From Haliotis rufescens (Eukaryota), in the NCBI RefSeq assembly GCF_023055435.1, contig NW_025963779.1, positions 76,694,001 through 76,758,000 of the forward strand: DNA of 64,000 nt, read 5' to 3'. Of the stretch, positions 1,089 through 34,496 are shown one piece after another. The position numbers and the translations under genes were made by a program. Under the pieces are notes generated by a model. The model worked only from the letters and a program-made list of their open reading frames with translations, made no database searches and was not told the DNA's origin. Position 1 is the stretch's first letter; each line of letters begins with the position of its first letter.

Positions 1089-2324
1089 CGGATCCATAGG
1101 TAGAGGAATCAACACAGACACTAACCAGCGGTCCCTACGATCGAATTCTAGAGAAAGAACCGGGAAATAGCGGCGTGGCCAGGGCCCCGAGTGTAGTGAT
1201 AGACAAGACAAAGTGTCATTCCTTTCATGTAATGTGGACGGACTTGAAAATAAAAAAACGTAAAGATGATTTTTTAACCTTTGTTACCAGTTTTGACATT
1301 ATAGCTTTGTTTTAAACATGGACTACAGAAATAGAATTCAGTGCTATATTTTCTGATTTTCAGTTATATAGTGTGCCTGCAACCAGACTTTCTAAACATG
1401 GGCGTTTATCAGGTGGAATTATCGTTTTAGTAGGAAATTCTCTGACTGATTTTGTCATTTATATTGTTACTTTTGAACAGAGTATATGCATTGTTTTCTC
1501 AAAAGAAATGCTAAATTTGACTGATAATATCCATTCCCATTTCCCATTCCTTGATAATAATGGGTGTTACTCACATTATTTTCCAAGGTTCTGCCAACCA
1601 AGATATTCCTGCGATAAAGTAGTCAACATTTATGGAGCAAGCCTTCTTGAGTTATGCTTACTATTAGACATTCACATAGTGAATGGTAGACTAGGTACGG
1701 ATAACCAATTAGGAGAGTACACTTATGTCAGCCCTAATGGTTGTAGTACCATGGATTATGTTGTATGCTCATCTGACTTTTTTTTTATCATATATGTGAT
1801 TTTGAGGTTGTTTCTCGATGTGACTCACTACATCTACCTGTAACTATGACAACGCCTGTGGTCAAATGCTCCGCGGAAACGCAATCAACAGACCGCCGTG
1901 TTCGATACCCCTGGGGGGATAACAAGAAGGAACAGTTCATACATAATTTGGAATCGTCCGAAATTGCAACGAATCTGGAAAAAGCGAGTTTAGAAGCTCT
2001 TACTGACATAGACAAGAGTGTATAACGTTTACAGAGGCAAAAACCTTATAGGAATAATAATAACAATCATCAACATATTTGTAAAACGAGAAACCCGTGG
2101 CATGATGATGACTGTCTGATAATGAAACATGAACGCTGTCGTGCTCTTAACAAATTTAGAAAAACTAAAGACAATGAAGATTTGCGGAATTACCATCAAA
2201 TAAGGAATGAATATAAGACTATTTGTAGAAAAAAACAAGGGGATTACATGACCAGTAAACGTACCACACTGGAGCAAACTACTGATTCAAAGTCATACAA
2301 TGTATGTATACAAGGTATATGTCA

Positions 2325-2998
2325 TTAACAGGACATAACCTGACAATATATCTATACAAGTTGCATATCATATTCAGGACCTAATCTGACAAATATCACT
2401 ACAAGTTGTATATCATATAAGCGTACATGACATAGCCTGACAATATATCTATACAATTCATAAATCATTATCAGGACAGAATCTGACAATATATCTATAC
2501 AATTCATATATCATATACAGGACATAACCTGACAATATATCTATACAAGTTATATATTATATACAGGACATAACCTGACAATATATCTATACAAGTTATG
2601 TATCATATACAGGACATAACCTGACAATATATCTATACAAGTTATGTATCATATACAGGACATAACCTGACAATATATCTAAACAAGTTATATATCATAT
2701 ATAAGATTAACCTGACAATATATCTATACAAGTTATATATCATATATAAGACATAACCTGACAGTATATCTATACAAGTTATATATCATATATAAGACAT
2801 AACCTGACAATATATATCTATACAAATTATATATCATATATAAGACATAACCTGACAATATATCTATACAAGTTATATATCATATATAAGACATAATCTG
2901 ACAATATATCTATACAAGTTATATATCATATATAAGACATAATCTGACAATATATCTATACAAGTTATATATCATATATAAGACATAATCTGGCAATA
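2325..2998. repeat. 46-bp minisatellite, about 14 copies
   Basis: Unit GACATAACCTGACAATATATCTATACAAGTTATATATCATATA(C/T)A(G/A); period 46 (2521 to 2567). Confidence 0.95.
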
Positions 2999-3072
2999 TA
3001 CCTTCAAGCTCTAAATATGACGACGGCCTGGAAACAATCGGGTCGGTCGGAGTTCGGTGACACTCAAAATCA

Positions 3073-5039: not shown

Positions 5040-7715
5040 CAACCACCTTGCACACGTGACATAACAGTTAACTGTACATCCTTTCCCCGCCACCTTCTTC
5101 ACGTGACATAACAGTTAACTGTACACCCTTTCCACACCGCCTTGTACACGTGTGATAAACGTTAACCGTACACCCTTTCCCGCCACATTGTCAACGTGAC
5201 ATAATAGTTAACTGTAGACTCTTTCCCCACCACCTTGCACACGTGACATAACAGTTAACTGTACACCCTTTACCCACCGCCTTGCACAAGTGACATAACA
5301 GTTAACTGTACATCCTTTCCCCACCGCCTTGTACACGTGACATAACAGTTAACTGTACATCCTCTCCCCACCGCCTTGTACACGTGACATTACAGTTAAC
5401 TGTAGACCCTTTCCCCACCGCCTTGCACACGTGACATAACAATTAACTGTACACCCATTCCACACCGCCTTGTACACGTGTCATAAACGTTAACTGTACA
5501 TCCTTTCCCCACCGCCTTGTACACGTGACATAACAGTTAACTGTACATCCTCTCCCCACCGCCTTGTACACGTGACATTACAGTTAACTGTAGACCCTTT
5601 CCCCACCGCCTTGCACACGTGACATAACAATTAAATGTACACCCTTTCCCCACTGCCTTGTACACGTGTCATAAACGTTAACTGTACATCCTTTCCCGCC
5701 ACATTGTCAACGTGACATAATAGTTAACTGTAGACTCTTTCCCAACCACCTTGCACACGTGACATAACAGTTAACTGTACATCCTTTCCCCGCAACCTTC
5801 TTCACGTGACATAACAGTTAACTGTACACCCTTTCCACACCGCCTTGTACACGTGTCATAAACGTTAACTGTACACCCTTTCCCGCCACATTGTCAACGT
5901 GACATAATAGTTAACTGTAGACTCTTTCCCCACCACCTTGTACACGTGACATAACAGTTAACTGTACACCCTTTACCCACCGCCTTGCACAAGTGACATA
6001 ACAGTTAACTGTACACCCTTTCCACACCGCCTTGTACACGTGTCATAAACGTTAACTGTACATCCTTTCCCGCCACATTGTCAACGTGACATAATCGTTA
6101 ACTGTAGACTCTTTCCAAACCACCTTGCACACGTGACATAACAGTTAACTGTACACCCTTTCCCCACTACTTTGCACACGTGACATAACAGTTTACTTCA
6201 CATCCTTTCCCCGCAACATTGTACACGTGACATTAGAGTTAACTGTTCATCCTCTCCCCGCCTGATTGTACACATTAAAGTTAAAAAAGAGTTTCCTGTA
6301 CACCCTCTCCCCTCCACATTGTACACGTGACAAAAGAGTTAACTGTAGACTCCCTCCCCTCCACCTTGTACACGTGACAAAAGAGTTAACTGTAGACCCT
6401 CTCCCCTCCACATTGTACACGTCACAAAAGAGTTAACTGTAGACCCCTCCCCTCCACCTTGTACACGTGACAAAAGAGTTACCTGTAGACCCTCTCCCCT
6501 CCACATTGTACACGTGACAAAAGAGTTAACTGTAGACCCTCTCCCCTCCACATTGTACACGTGACAAAAGAGTGACTTGTACATCCTCTCCCCTCCACAT
6601 TGTACACGTGACAAAAGAGTTAACTGTAGACCCTCTCCCCTCCACCTTGTACACGTGACAAAAGAGTTACATGTAGACCCTCTCCCCTCCACATTGTACA
6701 CGTGACAAAAGAGTTACATGTAGACCCCCTCCCCTCCACATTGTACACGTGACAATGGAGTTAACTGTAGACCCTCTCCCCTCCACCTTGTACACGTGAC
6801 AAAAGAGTTACTTGTAGACCCTCTCCCCTCCACATTGTACACGTGACAAAAGAGTTACATGTAGACCCTCTCCCCTCCACATTGTACACGTGACAATGGA
6901 GTTAACTGTAGACCCCCTCCCCTCCACATTGTACACGTGACAAAAGAGTTACTTGTAGACCCTCTCCCCTCCTCATTGTACACGTGACAAAAGAGTTAAC
7001 TGTAGACCCCCTCCCTTCCACCTTGTACACGTGACAAAAGAGTTACCTGTAGACCCTCTCCCCTCCACATTGTACACGTGACAAAAGAGTTAACTGTAGA
7101 CCCTCTCCCCTCCACATTGTACACGTGACAAAAGAGTTAACTGTAGACCCTCTCCCCTCCACATTGTACACGTGACAAAAGAGTTAACTGTAGACCCCTT
7201 TCCTCTCCACCTTGTACACGTGACAAACGAGTTAACTGTAGACCCTCTCCCCTCCACATTGTACACGTGACAAAAGAGTTACTTGTACACGCTCTCCCCT
7301 CCACATTGTACTCGTGACAAAAGAGTTAACTGTACATCCTTTCCCCTCCACCTTGTACACGTGACAAAAGAGTTAACTGTAGACCCCCTCCCCTCCACAT
7401 TGTACACGTGACAAAAGAGTTACTTGTACACGCTCTCCCCTCCACATTGTACACGTCACAATGGAGTTAACTGTAGACCCTCTCCCCTCCACATTGTACA
7501 CGTGACAAAAGAGCTAACTGTAGACCCTTTCCTCTCCACCTTGTACACGTGACAAACGAGTTAACTGTAGACCCCCTCCCCTCCACATTGTACACGTGAC
7601 AAAAGAGTTACTTGTACACGCTCTCCCCTCCACATTGTACACGTGACAAATGAGTTACCTGTAGACCCTCTCCCCGTCATAAAACTACCTAAACACCCTC
7701 TCCCCCTACATTGTG
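5040..7715. repeat. 47-bp minisatellite, about 55 copies, in two sub-arrays
   Basis: Type 1 unit CACGTGACATAACAGTTAACTGTACACCCTTTCCCCACCGCCTTGTA (5040-6240). Type 2 unit CACGTGACAAAAGAGTTAACTGTAGACCCTCTCCCCTCCACATTGTA (6290-7680). Confidence 0.95.
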
Positions 7716-8829: not shown

Positions 8830-9560
8830 TCTCGCAGGGTCTGAGGGTGACATCTCTTGGGTTGATAACACAGGCGGCAGCCGTGCTGGGAATCTCCTGG
8901 TTGATAGCAGATCATGTGGATCGTCTGTTGTCGAGGAGCTCTGTGTCCCAGTACTCTAGCTTGCGCTTGGTATATATACAGTCTTTGTGTCCTGTCGCAG
9001 TGGACGTATTCTTCTAGCCTTTTCTTTACGGTCAGTTCTTCGACAGCAAAGTTCCACCTTTGCGTTTTCTTTCGATGTATGGACTTGATGTCATCGTTGA
9101 GTTTCTCTTTGTCTTGTCCACTCAACTATCTCAACGGGTCATATCGTTCGACCATAACAGGAGCATGGTATTCCAACACTCCGAACAGACGACTTCCGGC
9201 CATCTTATGTACACGAGACTCAAGAAATGCTATTACAGCAAGCTATATCAAGACTCAGGCAATGCATTATATGACTCACAGTTGTTTGATCAGGGTTACA
9301 TAATTCCAGTCGTTAGTAAATCTTTTAAAACCTTTTCTGGTTGACATTTAGAGGACATTTCAAACTTTTATGCTTCAGTGACAAAAATGATGTCCGATGC
9401 AATTTCCCAATTTTACTTGTTGTCGTGGTTGTTCAGGTGAACTTTGGACTTGCCTTTGCATGTGTTTGTGACAGGTGCCACTGATGGGGCAGGATACGAT
9501 CACCATTTGGCGATCACCTGGTGTCAACACTAATTTGTAGTGATTTATAAACATGCTCAT
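8830..9560 (-). mobile_element. Possible highly decayed Gypsy-type integrase remnant
   Basis: Broken reading frames give FKRFTNDWN, LFGVLEYHAP and QARVLGHRAPR, weakly resembling integrase core and C-terminal segments; many stops. Confidence 0.3.
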
Positions 9561-10357
9561 GAAAATAGTCGGAAACGTACAATGGACTCAATATTTCTTA
9601 TGATTATTGAAATAATTTTATTGCTTACATTCCTATGTATGTGATTACGTGTAAAACGTGACACATGACTTGACACATGTTGTATTATTATGCCTGAGCT
9701 TATGTAAGAACAAACATATCATCTATGCTAGTAACCAACTCCGTGTCCGAGAATATAATGCTCTATATATGAGTGATTGTTTATTGTTAAACACCACACT
9801 CACCAATATTCCAGTTATATGTCGGTTGTCTGAAAATACTCGAATCTGGACCAGACAATCCAGTGATTGATTTCATGAGCTTCGATCTACACTACTCGGA
9901 CCCGATCCCGTTAGTTGGTTGGTCTGTTGCTTAAAGCCGCACTCAGGAGTATTCCAGCCATATGACGGCGGTCTGTTAATAATCGAGTCTTGACCAGACA
10001 ATCCAGTGATTGATATCATGAGCATCGATTCACGCAATTGGGATAGACCAGATACTTTTTAAATTAAAACTATGAGCCTAAATATTTCTCTTTATGAAAA
10101 CAAACCTTGCAAGAATGTAATCTTCGTGACAGAAAATTTCATTTTTTCCACAGAAATATATATTCCTTCACATGCTGGATTATCCATGGTATTGACACGT
10201 ACAGTGTCGGCTCCCCAACGCAGGACTGGAAGTGTCGGTTCAAGCATGTTCGGTTTTTCTGCACGACTGTAGCTTTCCATACACATCTAGAAACACACTC
10301 AACCAAAGCAAGATACAACAGAAGGCATTTAGGAGTGATACACCTAAGGAAGATATG

Positions 10358-11110
10358 AATGGATGTCAACTTCTTTATTATGAGGAACTCAACGTTTCGG
10401 AGTATCTACTTACTCCTTCATCAGTTATGTATGGATGTCAACTTCTTTATTATGAGGAACTCAACGTTTCGGAGTATCTACCTACTCCTTCATCAGTTAT
10501 GTATGGATGTCAACTTCTTTATTACGAGGATCTTAACGTTTCGGAGGATCTACTTACTCCTTCATCAGTTATGTATGGATGTCAACTTCTTTATTATGAG
10601 GAACTCAACGTTTCGGAGTATCTACTTACTCCTTCATCAGTTATGTATGGATGTCAACTTCTTTATTATGAGGAACTCAACGTTTCGGAGTATCTACCTA
10701 CTCCTTCATCAGTTATGTATGGATGTCAACTTCTTTATTATGAGGAACTCAACGTTTCGGAGTATCTACTTACTCCTTCATCAGTTTTGTATGGATGTCA
10801 ACTTCTTTATTATGAGGAACTCAACGTTTCGGAGTATCTACTTACTCCTTCATCAGTTATGTATGGATGTCAACTTCTTTATTATGAGGAACTCAACGTG
10901 TCGGAGTATCTACTTACTCCTTCATCAGTTATGTATGGATGTCAACTTCTTTATTATGAGGAACTCAACGTTTCGGAGTATCTACCTACTCCTTCATCAG
11001 TTATGTATGGATGTCAACTTCTTTATTATAAGGAACTCAACGTTTCGGAGTATCTACTTACTCCTTCATCAGTTATGTATGGATGTCAACTTCTTTATTA
11101 TGAGGAACGT
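10358..11110 (-). repeat. 72-bp tandem repeat, about 10.4 copies, each with a hammerhead-ribozyme-like core on the - strand
   Basis: Minus-strand unit CATAA-CTGATGA-A-GGAGTA-AGTAGA-TACTCC-GAAA-CGTT-GAGTTCCTCAT-AATAAA-GAAGTTGACATCCATA. TCATCAG recurs every 72 bp from 10418 to 11066. The confidence is for the repeat; ribozyme activity is unproven. Confidence 0.9.
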
Positions 11111-11139
11111 GAATAATCAGAACATCGAAAATACATTGT

Positions 11140-11650
11140 TGAATGCCTAACACGGGAAGCTCAAACATCTTTACTGTATTGCAGCATGTAATAAATTAAT
11201 CAAGTAGAAATTGTGATACCGTGATTCTTAAATGCCTAACAGACGAAACTTGTGTTAATGTTGAATGTATTGCAGCATGTAAGAAATTAATCAAGTAGAA
11301 ATTGTGATACAGTGATTGTTAAATGCCTAACAGACGAAACTTGTGTTAATGTTGAATGTATTGCAGCATGTAATAAATTAATCAAGTAGAAATTGTGATA
11401 CCGTGATTCTTAAATGCCTAACAGACGAAGCTTGTGTTAATGTTGAATGGATTGCATCATGTAATGAATTAATCAAGTCGAAATTGTGATACCGTGATTC
11501 TTAAATGCCTAACAGACGAAACTTGTGTTAATGTTGAATGTTTTGCAGCATGTAATAAATTGATCAAGTAGAAATTGTGATAACGTGATTGTTAAATGCC
11601 TGACGGACGAAACTTATAAAATGTTGAATGCATTACAGGACGCAATAAAG
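11140..11650. repeat. 91-bp tandem repeat, about 5.5 copies, upstream of CYP copy A
   Basis: Unit AATGCCTAACAGACGAAACTTGTGTTAATGTTGAATGTATTGCAGCATGTAATAAATTAATCAAGTAGAAATTGTGATACCGTGATTCTTA; period 91 (11231 to 11322). Confidence 0.95.
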
Positions 11651-12019
11651 TAAGTATGTAAGCATCTATTAATTAAGTATAAATTGTGATGAAATATGTT
11701 TTATTTAATTCAAGAAGGCTTCATTATATTCGCTGTGGATATATGTTCTGTTAAGCTTGGACCCTACTGAATCCATTAAAATGATATTAAAACATATATT
11801 TCACACGTATACTGTAAGGTAAAACATCAATATGTATGTCGCATTCTAAAGCTGGCATAACGAGATGTGTGCTTTAGTGTTATACATGACACACGTAAAG
11901 AAAGGGCAAACAAACATGGCGATCGCCTGGGTTGGTAGGGGCAGTGTGACGAGTGGACAATGGACGAGTCTAAATGTATTACCCCTACCTTTACCAGTTA
12001 TGGCCTGATCCAGGAGCTG

Positions 12020-12150
12020 TTACTTTAAATACCATTTAAGACCATCTGTATAACTATACACAAGTTCGATATTTGACAGAAGTGCTGTATCGGTTGTGAC
12101 ACACGGTCGACCAAACAAGTCCGAGTAGACGTCAGTTCGAGGGCACACTG
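12020..12150 (+). promoter_or_regulatory. Candidate core promoter of CYP copy A (TTTAAATA, GACGTCA, TCAGTT Inr-like)
   Basis: Short motif matches 60-190 bp upstream of the ATG; this block is deleted in copy B. No TSS data. Confidence 0.3.
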
Positions 12151-12210
12151 TGGTGCACTGGGTTACAAAAAGCATCAGCGAGATAACCTACATCCATTCG
12201 GCAACTAGAC

Positions 12211-15200
12211 ATGGCAGCCATGTTAAATCAAAGCAATGCTTCCATTATGGCTGCTGTCGCACTGCTGGCGGGACTGTTGATGTTCAATACATCTCTGATA
12301 CTAGTGTTTTTCACTGTATTACTAATTCTATGGCTGTCAACGCGGCGTCACCCTGGACTTCCCCCCGGGCCCCCTCTTCTACCACTGGTGGGCAACATTT
12401 TTCAAATGGATGCCGATCCCCGAGTGACTTTCAGCAAACTGCGACGTCAGTATGGCAACATCTTCAGCGTGTACATCTTCCACAAGCCCGTCATCGTCCT
12501 CAACGGCTACAATGTCCACAAAGAGGCCCTGGTCAAGAACGCTGATGTTTTCTCAGACAGGCCTCACTCCTTCCTATCGGATATCTTTGGTCACAACAAA
12601 GGTAGGTAACTGTAGATTTTGGTGTATGTAGTGGCGTGTGAGCGTACTTTATGCCGATTTTAGCACTATTCCTGCAATATCACGGCGGGAAGCCTTCGGG
12701 GGAATGTAGTGTTGAATGAGGCATGTTTCCAATACATTGAAGGGAGTAGGGATCTGAATGTTACTTCGTAAATATTAAATTCGAGAAGTATATCTTCAAC
12801 TAGCTTTCCCGTGAATATTGTGGACCCTCTTTAGCATGGAAGAATGAATATGTTAATATATGCATGGCGTCACATGTCACTAAGACGAATGAAAGGCCAA
12901 GGAAGAAAAACTCACACACACGATTGATTATGAGCTGATCGCTACGATTAGTGAAGCTAAATAAATAAAAGCAAACGTAAATATCTGCAAATGTTTGGAA
13001 GTGTCAAGTGATACACAAAATGTGTAAATATAGGCCAGAATAACGTATATGACAACTATAATAACAGTAGTGATTATTGAAACCTCATACTAGTACATAT
13101 ACAAATACAAGTAGGATATCTTTACAACATCGTTTTCCGATTGATAGGAGCATTATTGGTATGCATGCAAACATATTGATATGCTTACTTATGCATGTCG
13201 TCGTTTGTCAAGGAGATTGCGTTAACACATAAATAATAAGCAAACATGGCGGACCTCTAAGATTGTTGAGTGAATGGTCGAGTCCATATTTATTGCTCGG
13301 GTACTTGCCCGTCTCCTACCCGACCCGGGTGCTCGTACTTCAGACAGCGTGAAGGAGTAAAGCTCCACAAAAGTTCGACATTTGTCGTGAATCTTTTGTG
13401 ACTAAATAGCAAACTATTCATATTATTTACCAAATTAAAGTTTTAAAAAAAGGTGACAGTATAACAGATTTGCAATATATACATAATAGAATGCGTATTA
13501 TGCATATGCATTATGTATGTTATACATTAAGCCACTTCAATTGTGTTGAGGCCTGTGAAGATCCGGGTTATAGTAGGTCTTCAGCAAGAGGCGCCTAACG
13601 GGGTCGGGTGGAGCGATGCTCATGAGGTCAATCACTGGATTGTCTGGTCCAGACTCGATTATTTACAAACCGCCGTCATGTAGCTTGAATATTGCTGAGT
13701 GCGGCGTTAAACAACAAACAAACAAACACTGCCGTCCAGTGTGTAGTTACTATGTTCTTCATTCTTATTTATATCATAAATATAAAAAACACCAGAAGAA
13801 CCACACAGCTTCATCATTCCATGACGATGTCAACAAATAACATTATATGTAAATATGCTTTATATTACAGGAATATTAAGCACCAACGGCTCTACATGGA
13901 AAGACATGAGAAAGTTCGCTGTCACCACTCTCAGAGAGTTCGGGGTGGGAAGGTCAACCATTGAAGAGAAAATACAGCAAGAACTGGATAAACTTTTGAA
14001 AGCATTTGAGGATGAAGGTTCGAATGAGTTTGATTGTAAACGACTTGTCCACAATGCTACGTCTAATATCGTTTCTGACCTTTGTTTCGGAAAGCATTAT
14101 GAATATAATGACCCACGATTCATCAGGCTGCTAGACGCAGTAGAGGAGATAGTTTCTGATTTAAGAGCTGCTAACGTTTTGGATGTGTTTCCAGCTGTGA
14201 GATTTCTACCGGGAGATTTCTTTAACTATAAACGCCTTATGAGAAACATCCAAGTACTGGAGAAAGAAGTAGCTAAACACATTGAGGAACACGTCAACAA
14301 CTACGACGAAGATGAACCCGTTGAAGATTTCACCTCCGCTTTCCTCAAAGAGGTGCGACACCGCAAGCAAAGAGACGAGACTTTTGATGGTAAAATGAAT
14401 TATATATTATGAGTTAGTGTATTTATGGTATACACTTATAAGCAAATTGGAATAAAATACTTTCAGTATAAAGGACGGCTTTAAAAAAACACCTGTCTTT
14501 GATGTTTTTGATTTAGTCAGAATCATACAATGTCCTTTTGGAATTCAAACTCTAAGAATTTTATCGCTTTTATTTGACAATTCTGTATCTTTTTTATAGA
14601 TAATTTACAATATCTCCGATGGCACCTTTATACTAAGCATAAAGATCCATCAGCGAAAACCTTAAAAAACTGAAGAAATGAAAAAGTCTTTGAATCCATC
14701 CATCGTCATACATTTTGTGCATTGTCTTAATAATTAATGCATTATCATTTCTGTTTAGAAAGTCACCTATCGATGGTTCTGATTGATATCTTCACACCCG
14801 GAACGTTTGATAATGCCAACAGCATCAAATGGTCACTACTACACCTACTGCATTACCCGGAAGTTCAGGAGAAGTGTTTCCAGGAGATCCAAGAACACGT
14901 CGGGTTCAACAGACGACCCTCCATGAAGGACAAGACAAGCCTTCCTTACGTAGAAGCCACGCTTTCAGAGGTCCTGAGACACGCAGACATGGTACCCACA
15001 GGGGTGCCACACACAGTCCCCCACGATGTCCAGTTCCATGGCTACACGTTCCCAAAGGGTGTCACTATTATTCCTATGTTGAACTCTGTGCTTCATGATC
15101 CGGCAACGTGGGGGGATCCACAAAATTTCAGACCTGAACGCTTCCTTGACCATGAAGGGAAATTCCGGAAGAGGGATGAATTAGTTACTTTTTCTCTTGG

Positions 15201-15848
15201 TAAGAATCTTTTGCTGATGGTATCAACGTTTTTTGCTGCCTGACGTTTTTAATAATAATAAGCAATAGAATATTTAACGTGAGAACTCATGTATCAAACT
15301 CAATATTCAAATCTGGAAAACAGCGTTATAACTACCCTCCGCAAATGGGCACGTTAAATTGAGTTTGTTCACATTGTAGTGACCTATAAACAAGAGTCCT
15401 ATAAGGATTGGTTGGTTGTTTTTTGTTTAATGTCAGTAGTTTCTGAGAAAACTTGTCCCTATTGCACACAGTATGCATATAGACATTACCATGTTAACCG
15501 AGACAATATAGTCGATGGTCATTCGTTTTCTTCATGTATTACAACATGAACTAATAATGTATGAAACATACATGTGTAGTCAAAACCCACAACTCTGCCT
15601 AACAAGAGATATGTCATTCGTGTACATCATTTAATGATCTTTCCTCGTGTTTAATCTGGTTTGCAGGACGCCGAGCATGTCCTGGGGAGTCACTAGGCCG
15701 CATGGAACTGTTCCTGGTTCTTACCACATTGATTCAGAGGTTCAAGTTCGTCCCTCCGAGTGGAACGCTGCAACCACTGATAGGAATAATGGGCATTGCC
15801 AACAATGCTCCCCCTTTCAAGTGCAAAGCCATTCCAAGGAACATTTGA
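12211..15848 (+). CDS. Cytochrome P450, clan 2 (CYP2-like), copy A; exons 12211-12601, 13871-14389, 14759-15199, 15667-15848; 510 aa; atypical I-helix
   Basis: N-terminal TM anchor, PPGP, WKDMR (C-helix WxxxR), EVLR (ExxR), FRPERF and [11 protein letters not shown] (heme Cys). Three GT-AG phase-1 introns splice into an open 1533-nt frame. Confidence 0.95.
13553..13728 (+). mobile_element. SINE-like family 4, deleted copy, in CYP-A intron 1
   Basis: GTGAAGATCCGGGTTA...GAATATTGCTGAGTGCGGCGTTAAACAACAAACAAAC; also present in B intron 1 (about 21388-21563). Confidence 0.75.
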
Positions 15849-16259
15849 GAGGATAGCCACTGTTTTAGAATGGTTACATTGCTTAGCACCTTATGGTTCC
15901 ATGTGAAACGAATTTTGGTTTTATTTGAGAAATTTGAGATGTCCAAATGCCAACTTTGTAGTTTATCTGCGTGTAAGTACAATATAGCATTATATGATAA
16001 AACATTTCATTAAATAGAGTTACATGTATGGATGAGATATATCCTTTGAACTTTTTTAAGTGTCCTCCTGAAATCCCGTCGCAACCTGGTATTTCGTAGT
16101 TTTCAAATCTCTTTTATCCACAGGGATTTCCTGTGCCTGGTTTTCGCAAGATTTCGGAAATTAAAACCTTTTACTACCTTTCTCTTGCCTCTTGTATCTT
16201 GGCATGTAATAACTTAATATAGAGAAAAGTAAATGTTATGAAGTAGTTTAACTTCCAGG

Positions 16260-16296
16260 AGAGAGAGAGAGAGAGAGAGACAGAGAGAGAGAGAGG

Positions 16297-16332
<36 letters not shown>

Positions 16333-16335
16333 GAG
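16260..16335. repeat. (GA)n/(GACA)n compound microsatellite
   Basis: Read directly from the sequence; a shorter version occurs at 44563-44609. Confidence 0.9.
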
Positions 16336-16821
16336 ATGACCTTTGAGACTCAGTACGGGGCCTGTTGTGACCTACTTTACCGGTGAAAGTCATGATACAA
16401 AGCCCAGGGTTGTGCTCGAGGTCACCTGATGTGTACCCCGGTAATACAAACAAGTGTCCCGAGTCGCGGTGTGCGCTCAGAAAAAGCACTAACTGCAGTC
16501 CACACATTCGGGGGTGGTTGGGGGGTGGAGGGGTGGAGGAGATAAAATTATGTAAATATGTCGCATTTTCAACACCCAGAGTGCAGTTCAGTTGCATCTG
16601 AATAAAGCATGTTATACCCATATTGACGTAAAAACACGTTAACTTTGTTTCACCTAAATAACGCTCACGCAATGTCACGGATTGGTGAAAATCGACGTCT
16701 AGGCCCAGTGGATATGTTGCAAATAGGAATGGTGCAAAACGAAGTTACCATACGTTATTATTTTCATTGAAACACAATATCATCTCTTTGAAGGCGTTAT
16801 CTGCAAAAGGGCAACGCTCAT

Positions 16822-17373
16822 GTTTGTTTGTTTGTTGTTTAACGCCGCACTCAGCAATATTCAAGCTATATATGACGGCGGTCCGTAAATATTCGAGTCT
16901 GAACAATCCGTTGAGTCACATCGTGAGCATCGATCAAAGGAATTGGGACATAATAACATGCATCAACCAAGTCAGCGAGCCTGACAACCCGATCCCGTTA
17001 GTCTCCTCTTACGACAAGCATGGGTTACTGAAGACCAATTCTAACCAAGATCTTCACTGGGGCTCACATGTACTAGTCAAATAAGACGTCTGGCATGAAA
17101 TAATTGTCAATCAGTTGGGAGTAAAGTGATTCATATACCATGTCCTGTTTCAGCTATGTGACGGCGGTCGATAAATAATCGAGTCTGGATCAGACAATCT
17201 AGTGATTGACATCATGAGCATCGATACACGCAATTGAGATGCGATTGACATGCCTCAACAAAGTCAGCGAGTCTGACCACCTGATCCCGTTAGCCGCCTC
17301 TTACGACAAGCATAGTCGCCTTTTACGGCAAGCATGGGTTGCTGAAGACCTATTCTACCCCGGATCTTCACAG
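16822..17373 (-). mobile_element. Two SINE-like family 4 copies
   Basis: (TTTG)n tail, CTCAGCAATATTC, CTCTTACGACAAGCATGGGTT, GGATCTTCAC; duplicated at about 24755-25250 and inverted at 39652-40205. Confidence 0.75.
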
Positions 17374-17377
17374 GTCG

Positions 17378-17935
17378 ACAACACTCATGACTTGCCACAG
17401 GCCGGTCATCCACATGTGACGTCAAGTCAAAAAGACAATTATATTCGGTTGGTGCATCTACGGAATCGACACCAAACTGCCACAACTCGGTTGAGACGAA
17501 TTAGTGGCTGAACCGTACGCAACCGGTTGAGGGAACATAACATCTGGCCCCGACATTGAGCTAAACGCCCAATTTTGCTTCCGCATCACCGTCAGGCACG
17601 CCTGGTGTAAAACAGCATCTGAGGTTCAGAAGACAAGAATGGACCAATATTCTGTTCACAGACGAAGCAGGTTTCATCTGGACAGCGTCCAGGATAACAT
17701 TTGAGCGACGTTCGCGTTGCTAAAAATCGTCAGTTTGGGGGTAGGAAGTGTGATGGTATGGGGTGGCATCACAACACATGGGAGAACACAACTCATCATT
17801 GAATGCCGTACGCTACCGGGGCGACATTGTTTAACATGATGTTCTACCCTTTGTGCAAATATATATTCAATAAATGTTTCTGAGTTGTTTCAGTGTATGT
17901 CGTACTTATTTAATCCCTTGTGAAACGTCCATGGG
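17378..17935 (+). mobile_element. Decayed Tc1-like transposase fragment
   Basis: DLPQAGHPHVTS..DNYIRLVHLRNRH, ILFTDEAGF and SVMVWGGIT motifs in broken frames. Confidence 0.75.
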
Positions 17936-17954
17936 GGTTAAACAGCAAACAAAC

Positions 17955-19079
17955 AATTTTCTTGACGTTTTACATTCTCCAAGAACCATGTTAAATTATG
18001 TCGAAATGTTTGATTTTTCAATTTTGTATATCACTGTCCCACACGGCAAACTTAACGAAAAACTTAATTCCATTTTCTATGAACGTTGTGACCATGGATA
18101 TATTTATACGGCGATATTTTGCCTCCTAGTTATGAATTAAATAAAATAGCTGGCTTTTGAAATGTAGTTAAAAAACATATTGGCTCTCACGCACGCACAC
18201 ACGCACAATATCAACTTGTCGGTCCCTTAAACCTCTGTCGTCAAATGTTCAGGACAATTTGTCAAAAAAAGAAAGTATATGTCATCTGAAGTTGAATGTA
18301 AAAACAATATGTGAAATGCTTGACTTCCTCGTTGATGAAACGGGGGCACGGGTGGCCCAGTCGTCTAAGGCGCCGCGATTCGCTGTGCAGAGTTGCGTCC
18401 CTTGGGCACGCCAGAAACCTATGATTGTGGGTTCGAATCCCGGTTCGCCCCAATTATGTTTCTAGGTTTGTCAGCACCATACCCGTGCTCGTGGGTTTCA
18501 CCGAAGTGGTAAACGTCTGAGACCTGCATCACTTCGGGCTTTCCTCCCACATTAAGCTGACACGCCGTGATATAACTGGAATACTGTTAAAAGCGGCGTT
18601 AAACCCAACTCACTCACTCACTCATTGATGAAACAGCTGTGTGAAATTTGGGGATAAGACATAATGGGCACCAATTGTGATCCCCTCCTTAATGATCTAT
18701 TTCGTAATAATGCATATGGATCGGAATGTCTAAATCAGTTCAGATTGGCAAACTCAAAACAAGGGAGTTTAACTTAAGCTCCAGGTATATGGATGATTTG
18801 ATATCGTTCAATAACCGCCTAGTTGCCAATTCCTTCCACTGATTTACAAACCTGAACTAGAAATAAAAGAGACCAGTGTAAATTTCATCTGCTTATTATT
18901 TATATTTAGGCAAAAAAAGGTTCAGTTAGTGACAACAACTATTCACAGGACAAGGGGTATGACAAGAGGGATGACTTCAATTTCCTTTTATGTCGAGCAA
19001 TGTTCCTGCAGCTCCACAACTTTTTAGGTACAGGAGAGCATGTTCTTGCTACGAATATATCAAAGAGCGTCATACGACT
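17955..19079 (+). mobile_element. Decayed Penelope-like reverse transcriptase fragment, cut at the tandem-duplication junction
   Basis: FDFSxLYxTVPH, MGTNCDPLL, RYMDDLISFNN, PELEIKET, YDKRDDFNF and SSNVPAAP motifs in broken frames. Confidence 0.7.
18341..18622 (+). mobile_element. Full-length tRNA-derived SINE family 1, present only in the unit-A copy
   Basis: A box TGGCCCAGTCG and B box GGTTCGAATCC; (CACT)n tail; TSD TTGATGAAAC; empty site at about 26565 and about 38300. Confidence 0.9.
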
Positions 19080-19650
19080 TGTGTTAACGTTGAATGTATT
19101 GCAGCATGTAATAAATTAATCAAGTAGAAATTGTGATACCGTGATTCTTAAATGCCTAACAGACGAATCTTGTGTTAATGTTGAATGTATTGCAGCATGT
19201 AATAAATAAACCAACAGAAATTGTGATACCGTGATTGTTAAATGCCTAACAGACGAAGCTTGTGTTAATGTTGAATGTATTGCAGCATGTAATAAATTAA
19301 TCAAGTAGAAATTGTGATACCGTGATTCTTAAATACCTAACAGACGAAGCTTGGTTTACTGTTGAATGTTTTGCATCATGTAATAAATTAATCAAGTAGA
19401 AATTGTGATACAGTGATTGTTAAATGCCTAACAGACGAAGCTTGTGTTACTGTTGAATGTATTGCAGCATGTAATAAATTAATCAAGTAGAAATTGTGAT
19501 ACCGTGATTCTTAAATGCCTGACAGACGAAACTTGTGTTACTGTTGAATGTATTGCAGCATGTAATAAATTAATCAAGTAGAAATTGTGATACCGTGATT
19601 GTTAAATGCCTGACAGACGAAGCTTATAAAATGTTGAATGCATTACAGGA
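19078..19650. repeat. 91-bp tandem repeat, about 6 copies, upstream of CYP copy B
   Basis: Same unit as 11140-11650. Confidence 0.95.
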
Positions 19651-20084
19651 CGCAATAAAGTAAGTATGTAAGCATCTATTAATTAAGTATAAATTGTGAT
19701 GAAATATGTTTTATTTAATTCAAGAAGGCTTCATTATATTCGCTGTGGATATATGTTCTGTTAAGCTTGGACCCTACTGAATCCATTAAAATGATATTAA
19801 AACATATATTTCACACGTATACTGTAAGTTTAAACATCAATATGTATGTCGCATACTAAAGCTGGCATAACGAGATGTGTGCATTATATTATACATGACA
19901 CACGTAAAGAATGAGCAAACAAACATGGCGATCGTCTGGGTTGGTAGGGGCAGTTGCAATGGACGAGTCTAAATTTATTACCCCTACCTTTACCAGTTAT
20001 GGTCTGATCCAGGAGCTGTTACTGTGGTGCACTGGCTTACAAAAAGCATCAGCGAGATAACCTACATCCATTCGGCAACTAGAC

Positions 20085-23000
20085 ATGGCAGCCATGTTAA
20101 ATCAAAGCAATGCTTCCATTATGGCTGCTGTCGCACTGCTGGCGGGACTGTTGATGTTCAATACATCTCTGATACTGGTGTTTGTCACTGTATTACTAAT
20201 TCTATGGCTGTCAACGCGGCGTCACCCTGGACTTCCCCCCGGGCCCCCTCTTCTACCACTGGTGGGCAACATTTTTCAAATGGATGCCGATCCCCGAGTG
20301 ACTTTCAGCAAACTGCGACGTCAGTATGGCGACATCTTCAGCGTGTACATCTTCCACAAGCCCGTCATCGTCCTCAACGGCTACAATGTCCACAAAGAGG
20401 CCCTGGTCAAGAACGCTGATGTTTTCTCAGACAGGCCTCACTCCTTCCTATCGGATATCTTTGGTCACAACAAAGGTAGGTAACTGTAGATTTTGGTGTA
20501 TGTAGTGGCGTGTGAGCGTACTTTATGCCGATTTTAGCACTATTCCTGCAATATCACGGCGGGAAGCCTTCGGGGGAATGTAGTGTTGAATGAGGCATGT
20601 GTCCAATACATTGAAGGGAGTAGGGATCTGAATGTTACTTCGTAAATATTAAATTCGAGAAGTATATCTTCAACTAGCTTTCAAGGATCCCGTTAATATT
20701 GTGGACCCTCTTTAGCATGGAAGAATGAATATGTTAATATATGCATGGCGTCACATGTCACTAAGACGAATGAAAGGCCAAGGGAGAAAAACTCACACAC
20801 ACGATTGATTATGAGCTGATCGCTACGATTAGTGAAGCTAAATAAATAAAAGCAAACGTAAATATCTGCAAATGTTTGGAAGTGTCAAGTGATACAAAAA
20901 TGAGTAAATATAGGCCAGAATAACGTATATGACAACTATAACAGTAATGATTATTGAAACCTAATACTAGTAAATAAACAAATACAAGTAGGATATCTTT
21001 ACAACATCGTTTTCCGATTGATAGGAGCATTATTGGTATGCATGCAAACATATTGATATGCTTAATTATGCATGTCGTCGTAGGTCAAGGAGATTGCGTT
21101 AACACATAAATAATAAGCAAACATGGCGGACCTCTAAGATTGTTGAGTGAATGGACGACCCGGGACCTGGTACTTCAGACAGCGTGATGGAGTAAAGCTC
21201 CACAAAAGTTCGACATTTGTCGTGAATGTTTTGTGACTAAATAGCAAACTATTTATATTATTTACCAAATTAAAGTTTTAAAAAAAGGTGACAGTGTAAC
21301 AGATTTGCAACATATACATAATAGCATGCGTATTATGCATATGCATTATGTATGTTATACATTAAGCCACTTCAATTGTGTTGAGACCTGTGAAGATCCG
21401 GGTTATAGTAGGTCTTCAGCAAGAGGCGCCTAACGGGGTCGGGTGGAGCGATGCTCATGAGGTCAATCACTGGATTGTCTGGTCCAGACTCGATTATTTA
21501 CAAACCGTCGTCATGTAGCTTGAATATTGCTGAGAGCGGCGTTAAACAACAAACAAACAAACACTGTCGTCCAGTGTGTAGTTACTATGTTCTTGATTCT
21601 TATTTATATCATAAATATAAAAAAACCCCAGAAGAACCACACAGCTTCATTATTCCATGACGATGTCAACAAATAACATTATATGTAAATATGCTTTATA
21701 TTATAGGAATATTAAGCACCAACGGCTCTACATGGAAAGACATGAGAAAGTTCGCTGTCACCACTCTCAGAGAGTTCGGGGTGGGAAGGTCAACCATTGA
21801 AGAGAAAATACAGCAAGAACTGGATAAACTTTTGAAAGCATTTGAGGATGAAGGTTCGAATGAGTTTGATTGTAAACGACATGTCCACACTGCTACGTCT
21901 AATATCGTTTCTGACCTTTGTTTCGGAAAGCATTATGAATATAATGACCCACGATTCATCAGGCTGCTAGACGCAGTAGAGGAGATGATTACTGATTTAG
22001 GAGCTGCAAACGTGTTGGATGTGTTTCCAGCTGTGAGATTTCTACCGGGAGATTTCTTTAACTATAAACGCCTTATGAGAAACATCCAAGTACTGGAGAA
22101 AGAAGTAGCTAAACACATTGAGGAACACGTCAACAACTACGAAGAAGATGAACCCGTTGAAGACTTCACCTCCGCTTTCCTCAAAGAGGTGCGACGCCGC
22201 AAGCAAAGAGACGAGACTTTTGATGGTAAAATGAATTATATATTATGAGTTAGTGTATTTATGGTATAATCTTTGATGTTTTTGATTTAGTCAGAATCAT
22301 ACAATGTCCTTTTGGATTTCAAACTCTAAGAATTTTATCGCTTTTATTTGACAATTCTGTATCTTTTTTATAGATAATTTACAATATCTCCGATGGCACC
22401 TTTATACTAAGCATAAGGATCCATCAGCGAAAAACTTTAAAAAACTGAAGACATGAAAAAGTCATTGAATCCATCCATCGTCATACATTTTGTGCATTGT
22501 CTTAATAATTAATGCATTATCATTTCTGTTTAGAAAGTCACCTATCGATGTTTCTGATTGATATCTTCACACCCGGAACGTATGATAATGCCAACAGCAT
22601 CAAATGGTCACTACTACACCTACTTCATTACCCGGAAGTTCAGGAGAAGTGTTTCCAGGAGATCCAAGAACACGTCGGGTTCAACAGACGACCCTCCATG
22701 AAGGACAAGACCAGCCTTTCTTACGTAGAAGCCACGCTTTCAGAAGTCCTGAGACACGCAGACATGGTACCCACAGGGGTGCCACACACAGTCCCCCACG
22801 ATGTCCAGTTCCAGGGCTACACGTTCCCCAAGGGTGTCACTATTATTCCTATGTTGAACTCTGTACTTCATGATCCGGCAACGTGGGGGGATCCACAAAA
22901 TTTCAGACCTGAACGCTTCCTTGACCATGAAGGGAAATTCCGAAAGAGGGATGAATTAGTTGCTTTTTCTCTTGGTAAGAATCTTTTGCTGATGGTATCA

Positions 23001-23903
23001 ACTTTTTTAGCTCCCTAACGTTTTTAATAATAATAAGCAATAGAATATTTAACGTGAGAACTCATGTATCAAACTCAATATTCAAATATGGAAAACAGCG
23101 TTATCACTACCCTCCGCAAATGGGCATGTTAAATTGAGTTTGTTCACATTGTAGTGACCTATAAACAAGAGTCCTATAAGGATTGGTTGGTTGTTTTTTG
23201 TTTAATGTCAGTAGTTTCTGAGAAAAGTTGTCCCTATTGCACACACTATGCATATAGACATTACCATGTTAACCGAGACAATATAGTCGATGGTCATTCG
23301 TTTTCTTTATGTACTACGAGTTAGTGAGTGAGTGAGTTGGGTTTAACGCCGCTTTTAACATTATTCCAGTTAATCATGGCGTGTCAGCTTTATGTGGGAG
23401 GAAAGCCCGAAGTGATGCATGTCTTAGACGTTTACCACCTCGGTGAAACCCACGAGCACGGGTATGGTGCTAACAAACCTAGAAACATAATTGGGGCGAA
23501 CCGGGATTCGAACCCACATAGGTTCTGGCATGCCCAAGGGACGCAACTCTGCACAGCGAATCGCGGCGCCTTAGACGACTGGGCCACCCGTGCCCCCTAT
23601 TACAACATGAACTAATAATGTATTAAACATACATGTGTAGTCAAAGCCTCTGCTAGACAAAAGATATGTCATTCGTGTACATCATTTAATGATCTTTCCT
23701 CGTGTTTAATCTGGTTTGCAGGACGCCGAGCATGTCCTGGGGAGTCACTAGGCCGCATGGAACTGTTCCTGGTTCTTACCACATTGATTCAGAGGTTCAA
23801 GTTCGTCCCTCCGAGTGGAACGCTGCAACCACTGATAGGAATAATGGGCTTTGCCAACAATGCTCCCCCTTTCAAGTGCAAAGCCATTCCAAGGAACATT
23901 TGA
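20085..23903 (+). CDS. Cytochrome P450, clan 2 (CYP2-like), copy B; exons 20085-20475, 21707-22225, 22534-22974, 23722-23903; 510 aa; atypical I-helix
   Basis: Same exon sizes and motifs as A; open frame; about 26 coding differences from A by eye. Confidence 0.95.
23318..23597 (-). mobile_element. SINE family 1 in CYP-B intron 3
   Basis: Reverse complement of 18341-18622; absent from intron 3 of A and C. Confidence 0.9.
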
Positions 23904-26189: not shown

Positions 26190-27200
26190 ATTTTCTTGAC
26201 GTTTCACATTCTCCAAGAACCATGTTAAATTATGTCGAAATGTTTGATTTTTCAACTTTGTATATCACTGTCCCACACGGCAAACTTAACGAAAAACTTA
26301 ATTCCATTTTCTATGAACGTTGTGACCATGAATATATTTATACGGCGATATTTTGCCTCCTAGTTGTGTATTAAATAAAATAGCTGGTTTTGCAAATGTA
26401 GTTAAAAAACATCTTGTCTCTCAGGCACGCACGCACGCACAATATCAATTTGTCGGTCCCTTAAACCTCTGTCGTCAAATGTTCAGGACAATTTGTCAAA
26501 AAAAGAAAGTATATGTCATCTGAAGTTGAATGAAAAAACAATATGTGAAATGCTTGACTTCCTCATTGATGAAACAGCTGTGTGAAATTTGGGGATAAGA
26601 CATAATGGGCACCAATTGTGATCCCCTCCTTAATGATCTATTTCGTAATAATGCATATGGATCGGAATGTCTAAATCAGTTCAGATTGGCAAACTCAAAA
26701 CAAGGGAGTTTAACTTAAGCTCCAGGTATATGGATGATTTGATATCGTTCAATAACCGCCTAGTTGCCAATTCCTTCCACTGATTTACAAACCTGAACTA
26801 GAAATAAAAGAGACCAGTGTAAATTTCATCTGCTTCATATTTATATTTAGGCAAAAAGATTCAGTTAGTGACAACAACTATTCACAAGACAAGGGGTATG
26901 ACAAGAGGGATGACTTCAATTTCCTTTTATGTCGAGCAATGTTCCTGCAGCTCCACAACTTTGTAGGTACAGGAGAGCATATTCTTGCTACGAATATATC
27001 AAAGAGCGTCATACGACTCCTGATCAAAACTTGTTTGACCAGGGTTGCAACATGCAAGGCCTTGGCGTGTCCTTGACGTGGATGTCTTTTCAAAATTTGA
27101 CACATCAGAAACAAAAAAGAAGTGTGATGAAATTCCTTATTTTAACTTGTACCATATGTTCCCGTGTTTTTTCAAATGAACAATTGACTTGCCTTTGCAT
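26190..27200 (+). mobile_element. Decayed Penelope-like RT fragment (unit-B copy, longer)
   Basis: YMDD, YDKRDDFNF and SSNVPAAPQLCRYRRAYS motifs. Confidence 0.7.
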
Positions 27201-29011
27201 GTGTGTGTGCCTGATGCCAACTGTGAGGCAGAATACGCTGACCTTTTCGCGAACAGCTGTATCATCACTATTTGATCATAACCACATGCTTCTGATATGG
27301 TCGGAATCGTACACTGGGCTCTGGTTTTACCAGATTTCCTTTGATTATGCAAATGGTTTTGTCACTTTTATCAAGATACCTTGAATTCTAATGTTTCTCG
27401 TCGACATTTCGTTATAATCATGACAGTAGTGATAGGACATGTCGGCACTTGATTCGGAGACAGGCTGTATCCGCGAAGCAGCAGAACCTATGCAGTGTTA
27501 CCACCACGCTTGCATAGTCACGTTACAGAAACCGAGGTCAACTCCTGGGTATCCCGCACACAGCATATGCAACGTCATGTTTTTCATTGACAAGAAACCG
27601 TCAGACAACGTTTCCAATTACTTTGTAAGGAAAAAGACAGCCACGAAATCATGTCATCACTGACTCACGTCTTTTTGTGACATTTGTATGGCTTGGTATT
27701 TGGAGGTGTTCCGACCTCATACCTTTGATCAGGAGAAGCACACGTTAAGTCACTGTCATGTCAGATTTGTTAGTTTATTTGTTTGTTTTTTAACGCTGCA
27801 TTCTGCAATATTCCGGCCATTCCAGGTCGGTCTGTAAATAAGCAAATCTGAATCTGACAAACCAGTGATTGCGTTCATTCAACCAATTTCAGCCATATGA
27901 GGTCGGTCTGTAAACCAAGTCTGCACCTGACAATCCAGTGATTGACATAATTATTCACCGCAGTTGGGATACGATGACATGCATCAACCAAGTCAGCGAG
28001 TCTGATCACCCGATCCTGTTAGTCACCTCTTACGAATCGATTTCTGAAGACCAATTCTAGTCCGATCCCGTTAATCGACTCTTACGACAAGCATGGGTTG
28101 GTGAAAAACAATTATTCTAACTCGGATCTTTACATTTCGTCCTGTGAGTACAAGACCGGGGTAAAATGTCCAGGTAAAAACAGTTCACGCAACTGTGAAT
28201 TTCCAGTATTGAAACATGCAGATTTAGAGGTATGTTTAAATAATGCGTGAATGAATGTAAACNNNNNNNNNNNNNNNNNNNNNNNNNNNNNNNNNNNNNN
28301 NNNNNNNNNNNNNNNNNNNNNNNNNNNNNNNNNNNNNNNNNNNNNNNNNNNNNNNNNNNNNNNNNNNNNNNNNNNNNNNNNNNNNNNNNNNNNNNNNNNN
28401 NNNNNNNNNNNNNNNNNNNNNNNNNNNNNNNNNNNNNNNNNNNNNNNNNNNNNNNNNNNNNNNNNNNNNNNNNNNNNNNNNNNNNNNNNNNNNNNNNNNN
28501 NNNNNNNNNNNNNNNNNNNNNNNNNNNNNNNNNNNNNNNNNNNNNNNNNNNNNNNNNNNNNNNNNNNNNNNNNNNNNNNNNNNNNNNNNNNNNNNNNNNN
28601 NNNNNNNNNNNNNNNNNNNNNNNNNNNNNNNNNNNNNNNNNNNNNNNNNNNNNNNNNNNNNNNNNNNNNNNNNNNNNNNNNNNNNNNNNNNNNNNNNNNN
28701 NNNNNNNNNNNNNNNNNNNNNNNNNNNNNNNNNNNNNNNNNNNNNNNNNNNNNNNNNNNNNNNNNNNNNNNNNNNNNNNNNNNNNNNNNNNNNNNNNNNN
28801 NNNNNNNNNNNNNNNNNNNNNNNNNNNNNNNNNNNNNNNNNNNNNNNNNNNNNNNNNNNNNNNNNNNNNNNNNNNNNNNNNNNNNNNNNNNNNNNNNNNN
28901 NNNNNNNNNNNNNNNNNNNNNNNNNNNNNNNNNNNNNNNNNNNNNNNNNNNNNNNNNNNNNNNNNNNNNNNNNNNNNNNNNNNNNNNNNNNNNNNNNNNN
29001 NNNNNNNNNNN

Positions 29012-29263: not shown

Positions 29264-30237
29264 TTTAAAATGTGTGAAGTGAATGTAAATACGTTGATGT
29301 AGAGGTCGATATATGTTTTAAATCATAGGTGAAGTGAATGTAAACACGTGGATCTAGAGGTCGATGTATGTTTTAAATAATGCGTGTATTGGATGTAAAC
29401 ACGTGGATGTAGAGGTCGATGTATGTATTAAATAATGCGTGTAGTGGATGTAAATACGTGAATGTAGAGGTCGATGTATGTTTTAAATAATGCTTGAAGT
29501 GGATGTTAGCACATCGGCTGTCGGCTTGCCTTAAGCACCGTACGTGACATGCAGTATAATGTAAAGTTGTTTTGCTTCGTCGGGATGAGTTCTTTTGCTC
29601 CAAATGTCGGGCAAAGTCGAACAAAGGAAAGAGGACGCCAACTAGACATTCAGTCATTATTCAGACCAGCAACCGCTGCAATTCGACTCAATTACAGACA
29701 AAAGCTTTCACTGCTTCTCTGTTGACGGAGAACCTTGAACGTTGACATTGGAGCATTTGCTGAACTGGATAAGGGTCTTTTTCAGTAGTTTCCCAAACAT
29801 ATATCTGTGATTTGTGGACAAACAGCTTGGTGTGCAGTGAATAATCGAGTACTATGCTTCCTACAGAATTTCAAATTGAGTCATGAATCCATTTCTATGC
29901 AATCGTCAGTATCAGTGATGTGTTTGTGAGGTAGGGAGCACTGCCGTCAACTGCAAAGGAAGATGTCCTAAAACTAACTTGCTAGCTATCATCAGTTTTT
30001 TGCAGGACACATTATTTGCACATATTAAATGTAAATATTTGCTACATTACGGCATGATATGAAGCAGGGATACGAAAATGAAACAAGTCGTAGGCGTTTA
30101 CCACTTTGGTGAAACAATCAAACGGGTATGGAGCTGAAACAGATCCTAGGGAAGAATCCTGGATCCCTCATATCCAGGCACAGATAAGGGACACTGTTGA
30201 CATGATTAGCAACCTGTCTGAGTCAGTTTACCGACCT

Positions 30238-30402
30238 GAGGCGGTCGGGTAGCCTAGTGGTTAAAGCGTTCGCTCGTCACGCCGAAGACCCGGGTTCGAT
30301 TCCCGACATGGGTACAATGTGTGAAGCCCATTTCTGGTGTCCCCCGCCATGATATTGCTCGAATATTGCTAAAAGCGGCGTAAAACCATACTCACTCACT
30401 CA
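30238..30402 (+). mobile_element. tRNA-derived SINE family 2 (about 165 bp)
   Basis: A box TAGCCTAGTGG and B box GGTTCGATTCC; (CACT)n tail; TSD CAGTTT(A/C)CCGACCTGA. Confidence 0.9.
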
Positions 30403-30424
30403 GTTTCCCGACCTGATCATACTA

Positions 30425-30599
30425 CAGTAAACTACGGTTATAACGAACACGCTTATAACGAACTAACGGATATAACGAACTAACTTTTTAGTCCCGACTG
30501 TATGCTGTAGTTATGCTATATATATGCTTATAACGAACTACTGTTATAACGAACTAAAATTAGTAGTCCCTTTGAGTTCGTTATAACCGTAGTTTACTG
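30425..30599. mobile_element. Tc1/mariner-pogo-type MITE, inverted relative to 278-452
   Basis: Same TIRs and TA flanks. Confidence 0.85.
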
Positions 30600-31846: not shown

Positions 31847-32012
31847 GGGGGCGGTCGGGTAGCCTAGTGGTTAAAGCGTTCGCTCGTCACGCCGAAGACC
31901 CGAGTTCGATTCCCGACATGGGTACAATGTGTGAAGCCCATTTCTGGTGTCCCCCGCCGTGATATTGCTGGAATATTGCTAAAAGCGGCGTAAAACCATA
32001 CTCACTCACTCT
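31847..32012 (+). mobile_element. SINE family 2
   Basis: Near-identical to 30238-30402. Confidence 0.9.
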
Positions 32013-34300: not shown

Positions 34301-34496
34301 GCACAGTTACAACACTCATTGTTGTTAGGTGTTTGTCATAAATAGAATAGATAAGTATCGGTACTTCGCAGTTAAGAGCAGACGGCACCCATTCAGATAT
34401 ACACTAGACTGTGCTGGTATGTGTTTGATAAAAGCCATCCTCAACAGGTCCTCCCAAATAAGCATCACTCACACTAACAATGACACCCAAAATGTA

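Follow-up and report, generated by a model that had tools for sequence, protein, structure and literature searches.

Where hammerhead ribozyme-like cores stand in tandem, the question arises whether they act as ribozymes or are carried along as an ordinary DNA repeat. Such cores lie in the stretch of Haliotis rufescens DNA analysed here (64,000 nucleotides of contig NW_025963779.1, hereafter the window), where an earlier note, made from the letters alone, had seen either an amplified Penelope terminal unit or a short retrozyme-like array that could release 72-nt RNAs.

The array occupies positions 10354-11108, where TRF finds a 72-bp period with 10.5 copies and 96% matches, and a comparison of the units gives a mean of 2.3 differences between them. 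It is a head-to-tail tandem repeat of low GC and its units are intergenic. Ten CUGAUGA cores are found on the minus strand, with C3 at 10424, 10496 and so on up to 11072 and with all nine spacings equal to 72, in agreement with the ten tandem cores that had been described. The unit is best drawn as 10353-10424, with C3 as its end, the period-72 match itself running from 10354. The core of each copy is composed of CUGAUGA-A-GGAGUA, a loop of 6 nt and UACUCC-GAAA-CGUU, and an AAUAAA follows further on in the tail of each unit (10374-10379, minus strand, in the first one). Numbering the copies along the plus strand, the core of copy 1 (CUGAUGA, extra A, 6-bp stem II, GAAA-CG-UU) is located at 10391-10424 on the minus strand and recurs at 72-bp steps as far as 11039-11072; its motif type is that of Figures S3 and S7 of PMC4209133, and the predicted cleavage position falls between 10391 and 10390. 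CUGANGA with the extra nucleotide before stem II is present in ten of ten copies. Stem II is opened by a G-C pair and has 6 bp in nine of ten, with one mismatch in copy 3 (C3 at 10568), and GAAANNUH with the palindromic 15.2-16.2 is likewise found in nine of ten, copy 8 (C3 at 10928) reading GACA for GAAA. A recurrent A/G variant, present in copies 2, 5 and 9, falls in the loop. The make-up of the monomer and these departures from it had all been read correctly in the earlier note. The descriptor formed by core, stem II and GAAANNUH matches 3 of 200,000 dinucleotide-shuffled monomers, and the motif is therefore not due to chance.

The missing element is helix I. In the metazoan minimal hammerheads (min-HHR) of PMC4209133 the junction is built of three helices, helix I among them, and every motif in Figure S3 has a listed helix I. 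The descriptor published there specifies a helix I of 3-7 bp, CUGANGA with an optional base, a stem II of 3-7 bp and GAAANNUH. Our own implementation of this full descriptor gave 0 matches over the 64-kb window; with stem I left out it gave nine, all of them in the array and all nine with a helix I of 0 bp. Copy 8, which fails the core descriptor, has arms identical to the helix I arms of the other copies, and shifted or bulged registers never provided more than 2 bp in the array. The absence of a convincing stem I, already suspected from the letters, is thus borne out, and among the motif criteria tested it is helix I alone that keeps the array copies outside the min-HHR class. A check with Rfam and a descriptor had been recommended, and only its descriptor half, with the counts just given, was of use. 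The Rfam scan of 9000-12500, up to E 10, left the hammerhead families unmatched, which is uninformative because four of four control loci with a look-alike core were missed as well.

In order to place the unit among its relatives, three public contig runs (X1, X2 and X11) and the miRNA-seq run X21, four of the 24 listed runs, were aligned to 10056-10446 at 80% likeness; parts of the array's sequence words are shared with twenty public runs under three organism labels, no RNA library being listed among the runs that share them. X21 placed 0 reads on 10056-10446 and counts as no test of expression. The contigs fitting this stretch number 3,129 in X1, 1,705 in X2 and 3,296 in X11 with nearly all the depth on the unit, which therefore belongs to a very abundant dispersed family, the summed contig depth not being a copy number. 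Parent family and array differ at three places, namely 10389 (98-99% of depth), 10406 (97-98%) and 10408 (65-76%). The last two fall in the loop, and the first gives GUG, not GAG, after the cleavage triplet, the family letter at 10389 accounting for 433,604 of 437,789 in X1, 115,566 of 116,483 in X2 and 304,897 of 310,412 in X11. At the equivalents of all three positions the non-family letter is found in ten of ten array copies, which points to one founder.

The two arms of helix I can be compared directly. At the position of the 3' arm (10388-10390, minus strand), copy comparison and contig depth give GAG in the array, with AAG in copy 3, and GUG in 98-99% of the family depth; A stands at 10389 and its equivalents in all ten copies. 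On the 5' side, contigs that leave the reference behind C3 (10424) and start GTGAAT on the plus strand (169 in X1, 109 in X2 and 194 in X11) correspond to ..UUCAC ahead of the core in the parent family. The loose-end consensus thus places the 5' arm where the array has its unit junction ACAUAA (10425-10430, minus strand), which is alike in 4 of 6 letters to the tail of the array locus at 10353-10358. The array therefore reads UAA before the core and GAG after it, where the parent family reads CAC and GUG. These pair as a 3-bp helix I in three of three contig runs, as read by eye from majority letters and not from single contigs, the 5' arm being taken from loose-end consensus rows with an overall agreement of about 0.5. 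The parent family passes the min-HHR motif test, with a helix I of 3-7 bp beside the core. All ten array copies lack a stem that the scattered copies keep, which, judged from the sequence, makes the array likely to be inactive and an ordinary repeat.

Most copies of the family are not in the 72-bp tandem form, since less than 1% of the core depth enters a junction of the array type: the depth at 10425 is about 1,092, 474 and 1,289, against 209,446, 52,135 and 142,656 at 10408 (X1, X2 and X11, respectively). Contigs with 4-13 other letters cross the array junction in X1 and X2, suggesting that further loci may have related tandem junctions of their own. No stem II variant reaches 5% of the depth in X1, X2 or X11; stem II is conserved, and the covariation among homologues to which the earlier note had looked was not seen within the parent family. 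By its motif type we infer that this family may be the pLTR of a Penelope-like element or a non-autonomous derivative. A keyword search of the literature, with repeat databases outside its range, returned no paper that could be matched to it. The idea of an amplified Penelope terminal unit is thus upheld as regards the motif type and the high-copy family with an intact helix I, but not as regards the Penelope ORF, no RT or GIY-YIG ORF being tied to the family in the 64-kb window or in the 30-letter loose ends.

Look-alike cores were also examined in other sequence collections. The control set comprised 122 metagenome loci with a similar core, from a scan that covered about half of that collection. 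Core and stem II are passed by 105 of the 122, and 95 of these 105 have a helix I of at least 3 bp, counts that are not independent because a few related families dominate. Among 61 distinct look-alike motifs with a stem II of at least 4 bp, helix I reaches at least 3 bp in 50 and is 0 bp in 2; with permuted arms (1,000 rounds) at least 3 bp is reached in a mean of 22 and a maximum of 33 of the 61. In several of these loci the look-alike core stands 53-204 nt downstream of a same-strand ORF, and five of six such proteins scanned gave a GIY-YIG match, two matches being above the Pfam cut-off and one protein having also a weak RT match. Such an arrangement, a same-strand GIY-YIG ORF and then a look-alike core, is that of a Penelope 3' end. 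The metagenome contigs L026/L027, L050/L051 and L067/L068 contain pairs of look-alike cores, one on each strand, as would be the case in inverted Penelope insertions, and some such pairs stand beside RT/GIY-YIG ORFs. The family-specific pattern gave 0 stretches in metagenome contigs and two patterns gave 0 matches each in viral contigs; seven pattern matches in prokaryote genomes were treated as chance because none has an upstream CUGANGA.

The origin of the array is suggested by its flanks. On the left, the downstream tail of the parent dispersed element is recognised at 10322-10358 (minus strand), 23 of 30 letters being equal by eye to the X11 loose-end consensus, and the family depth is near the single-copy level left of about 10322. 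On the right, copy comparison identifies a leading partial unit (11073-11108, minus strand) that consists of tail only, without a core, is 36 nt long and begins 2 nt after the predicted cleavage position. It is followed at 11109-11116 (minus strand) by upstream sequence of the parent element with the sole CAC arm of the locus, 36 nt away from the nearest core; the right flank from 11109 starts GTGAATAA, the parent family's upstream sequence with the CAC arm, and 8 of its first 8 letters are those of the X1 and X2 consensus. The order of the locus along the minus strand is consequently upstream arm, 36-nt tail, ten times core plus tail, and the rest of the tail. What is repeated is a sub-segment of a dispersed repeat, and the array is bordered on either side by sequence of the parent, as is characteristic of a repeat-derived minisatellite; no target-site duplication is visible around it. 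Both observations indicate that the array likely grew inside one resident copy, and the unit boundary at C3 likely left out the 5' arm as it grew in place. Thus, we propose, with a probability of about 0.78, that the array represents ten copies of a piece of a dispersed min-HHR repeat, produced by local DNA duplication in a resident copy and predicted not to cleave.

In this mechanism a rearrangement would have parted the CAC arm from the core, which thereby came to be flanked by the 36-nt tail on either side. C3 and the point 2 nt beyond the cleavage site would be its breakpoints, and since these two points are brought together by the parent hairpin, template switching across that hairpin is a likely cause. 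Slippage or unequal exchange between direct repeats may then have expanded the 72-bp unit, and the same expansion would have spread the founder's private letters to all the copies; the scattering of the loop variant over copies 2, 5 and 9 fits unequal exchange.

The array breakpoints coincide with the functional ends of the ribozyme, and an RNA-level origin predicts the same. It could thus be supposed that a cleaved concatemer or a tail fragment was reverse-transcribed into a resident copy, the arms being lost and the units homogenised later, a course of events that we consider doubtful. It is favoured by the 5' end of the array, 2 nt past the predicted cleavage position, and by the unit boundary at C3, as well as by what is described for Penelope-like elements, whose insertions are often found within or beside copies already present (PMC6765202) and which leave tails of 30-40 bp behind (PMC8557442, PMC11167929), the leading partial unit measuring 36 nt. 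However, DNA hairpin bypass yields identical breakpoints, the target duplication is not visible, and for an Anolis element PMC11167929 reports no reads starting or ending at the cleavage site. Furthermore, the 5' arm is absent from every unit, which means that cleavage could not have released the array units one from the next. Local DNA duplication inside a resident copy is the reading that we retain.

As to activity, the pair next to the cleavage site (1.1-2.1) is needed for a hammerhead, as the published descriptor also implies; a keyword search of the literature on mismatches beside the hammerhead cleavage site gave no usable paper. The array cores are predicted not to self-cleave, helix I being missing in every copy. 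Without the 1.1-2.1 pair the three-way junction could not be formed, so that a transcript would be expected to give no 72-nt ladder. It is nevertheless conceivable, although very unlikely, that the array is an active mini-retrozyme whose minus-strand transcript cleaves in dimeric form, either lacking a canonical helix I or aided by a protein, to give 72-nt linear or circular RNAs. Nine of the ten cores are intact and carry the palindromic ACGU, and helix III could be shared between neighbouring units; retrozyme-like tandem units of 51-972 bp, hence as short as 51 bp, have been reported (Li et al. 2026, bioRxiv 10.64898/2026.07.22.740005), and array-type 31-mers occur in runs under three organism labels. 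Against this, helix I is 0 bp in all the array copies and kept in the parent family. Folding of the array leaves most of the core paired and gives the shared helix III a probability of 0.02-0.19 per copy; a dimer fold without helix I reaches -14.75 kcal/mol versus -25.5 kcal/mol for the minimum-energy fold, about 11 kcal/mol apart. The variants among the copies strike core and stem II without compensation. Cleavage is poor even for minimal hammerheads that are intact (PMC4209133), and it was not seen in 8 of 9 Xenopus dimers (Li et al.).

The proposal of a short retrozyme-like array releasing 72-nt RNAs is not supported, both helix I arms differing from the family in ten of ten copies and the flanks continuing the parent. 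The accompanying caveat that the cores may be inactive is, from the missing helix I, the likely truth. Copy 8, suggested as a natural negative control, would then be unusable as such because all the copies are predicted inactive. As far as the sequence goes, the array likely works like a transposon-derived minisatellite, probably dead, and not like an active mini-retrozyme.

An assembly artefact in copy number or arrangement appears marginally less probable still than an active mini-retrozyme. Four N gaps, which suggest a difficult assembly, and near-identical segmental copies are present in the window, and no single aligned contig spans the whole tested stretch; however, the copies show private as well as recurrent differences, and the left flank is joined to the unit in a contig (X1 record 1, 330 nt, 2 differences), with others crossing the junction. 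A protein-coding repeat has practically no likelihood, since, although two frames of the plus strand stay open across the array at 24 codons per unit and stop-to-stop ORFs of 306 and 263 aa cover it, all Pfam families are below cut-off, the recurrent variant replaces an L by a P in the longer of the two frames, and what is conserved in the dispersed family is an RNA motif of the opposite strand.

The nearest neighbour of the array is a cytochrome P450 gene, whose first coding exon is found at 12211-12609 on the plus strand (PF00067, E 2e-14). Its ATG at 12211 lies 1,103 bp from the array end at 11108 and on the opposite strand, consistent with the divergent arrangement at about 1.1 kb that had been reported; no link between the array and the P450 gene was found. 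The P450 genes, which contain introns as befits a eukaryote, form a cluster (12187-23903, 41773-43694, 49143-51654 and 57401-59301) in which two near-identical copies lie at 12211 and about 20085 and a third copy is on the minus strand, and a 126-bp piece of a P450 5' end is inverted at 43937-44062. A different 91-bp tandem array, found by TRF and without a hammerhead core according to the descriptor, is located at 11135-11653 (5.3 units), and a 91-bp array stands also upstream of the other near-identical P450 copy, at 19077-19663 (6.5 units). An empty-site test with the P450 paralogue (20061) was rejected: the 72-bp array is absent there, but the shared block (11167-12024 versus 19178-20023, 93.7%) ends inside the 91-bp array, so that its absence does not represent an empty site.

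Other minisatellites detected by TRF in the window have periods of 46 bp, 47 bp (56 copies), 55 bp (a family at four or more places) and 42, 79 and 121 bp; they lie at 2297-3000, 5043-7675, 29269-46458 and 56405-57308, and none of them passes the hammerhead descriptor. A short interspersed repeat that occurs at more than 10 places in the window is present at 9774-10053 as two neighbouring copies with 143 bp between them. Frameshifted remnants at 9300-9590, 18650-19077 and 26500-27400 (plus strand) and 37480-38300 (minus strand) presumably resemble the C-terminal part of a Naiad-type Penelope RT. A Naiad link of the array was considered for these nearby remnants and discarded, the nearest one being on the other strand and the Naiad label finding no support from Pfam or Atlas.

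In comparison with known systems, the array shares with the metazoan min-HHRs presented in PMC4209133 the CUGANGA with one extra nucleotide, G10.1-C11.1, a long stem II, GAAA-C-G-U-H without loop 3 and AU-rich flanks. The CAC/GUG arms of the parent family are those listed for Lottia gigantea (2) in Figure S3 of that paper, and its AGCAUA loop variant is the Patiria miniata loop of the same figure. Unlike these min-HHRs, of which most are described there as single motifs, the array copies lack helix I and form a 72-bp tandem; unlike metazoan pLTR min-HHRs, they have no RT/GIY-YIG ORF linked to them within the window and the 30-letter loose ends. The resemblance to the animal non-LTR retrozymes described by PMC7229834 and Li et al. 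consists in a low-GC, intergenic tandem with a type I core per unit. The retrozyme core of those reports is canonical whereas that of the array is minimal, and the unit of 72 bp differs from the 150-450 bp given in PMC7229834 for canonical circRNA-producing retrozymes. Li et al. require of a retrozyme that two or more consecutive units each contain a complete type I hammerhead; no array unit has a complete motif, and the array therefore fails their definition of active. In the proposal of the same authors, local amplification of a Penelope terminal sequence gives rise to such arrays, and tandem hammerhead repeats derived from Penelope ends are already in print. A catalytic core outside the stem descriptors is reminiscent of the Naiad 'HHR_core' motifs (Craig et al. 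2021, PMC8557442), although the spacer is 19 nt in the array against 7-17 in the search reported there; unlike those motifs, the missing stem is a local loss, since the parent family fits the full descriptor.

Other head-to-tail junctions of the parent family, among those listed, imply units of about 39, 48, 68, 69 and 88 nt (reference 10359-10424). The implied 39-88-nt units keep a CAC or CGC 5' arm, and the 69-nt type appears in two runs among the junctions listed; each rests on one junction of low depth, in contigs from which the length of an array cannot be read. Inverted joints from 10388 to 10420-10425 are also present in the parent family in the contig runs. It might be speculated that the parent family repeatedly spawns very short tandem units, joined at differing points and some of them with helix I, and that the array is a disarmed fossil of one, its 5' end marking an in vivo cleavage site. 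This seems to us unlikely; if true, such units would rank with the smallest animal concatemers of a self-cleaving, retrozyme-like kind.

As it stands, the array is of little consequence in itself, and represents a clear small case of a Penelope-type terminal motif seeding a minisatellite. It also serves as a warning that tandem hammerhead cores are not to be equated with retrozymes unless helix I is checked. Together with its parent family it forms a natural pair without and with helix I, useful for testing the cleavage of minimal hammerheads. If the 39-88-nt junctions correspond to true arrays with complete motifs, those loci, and not the array described here, would be the candidates for very small retrozymes. 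Short arm-keeping arrays, should they prove to cleave and to form circles, would lower the size limit of retrozymes and open the passage from a Penelope end to a retrozyme to direct testing.
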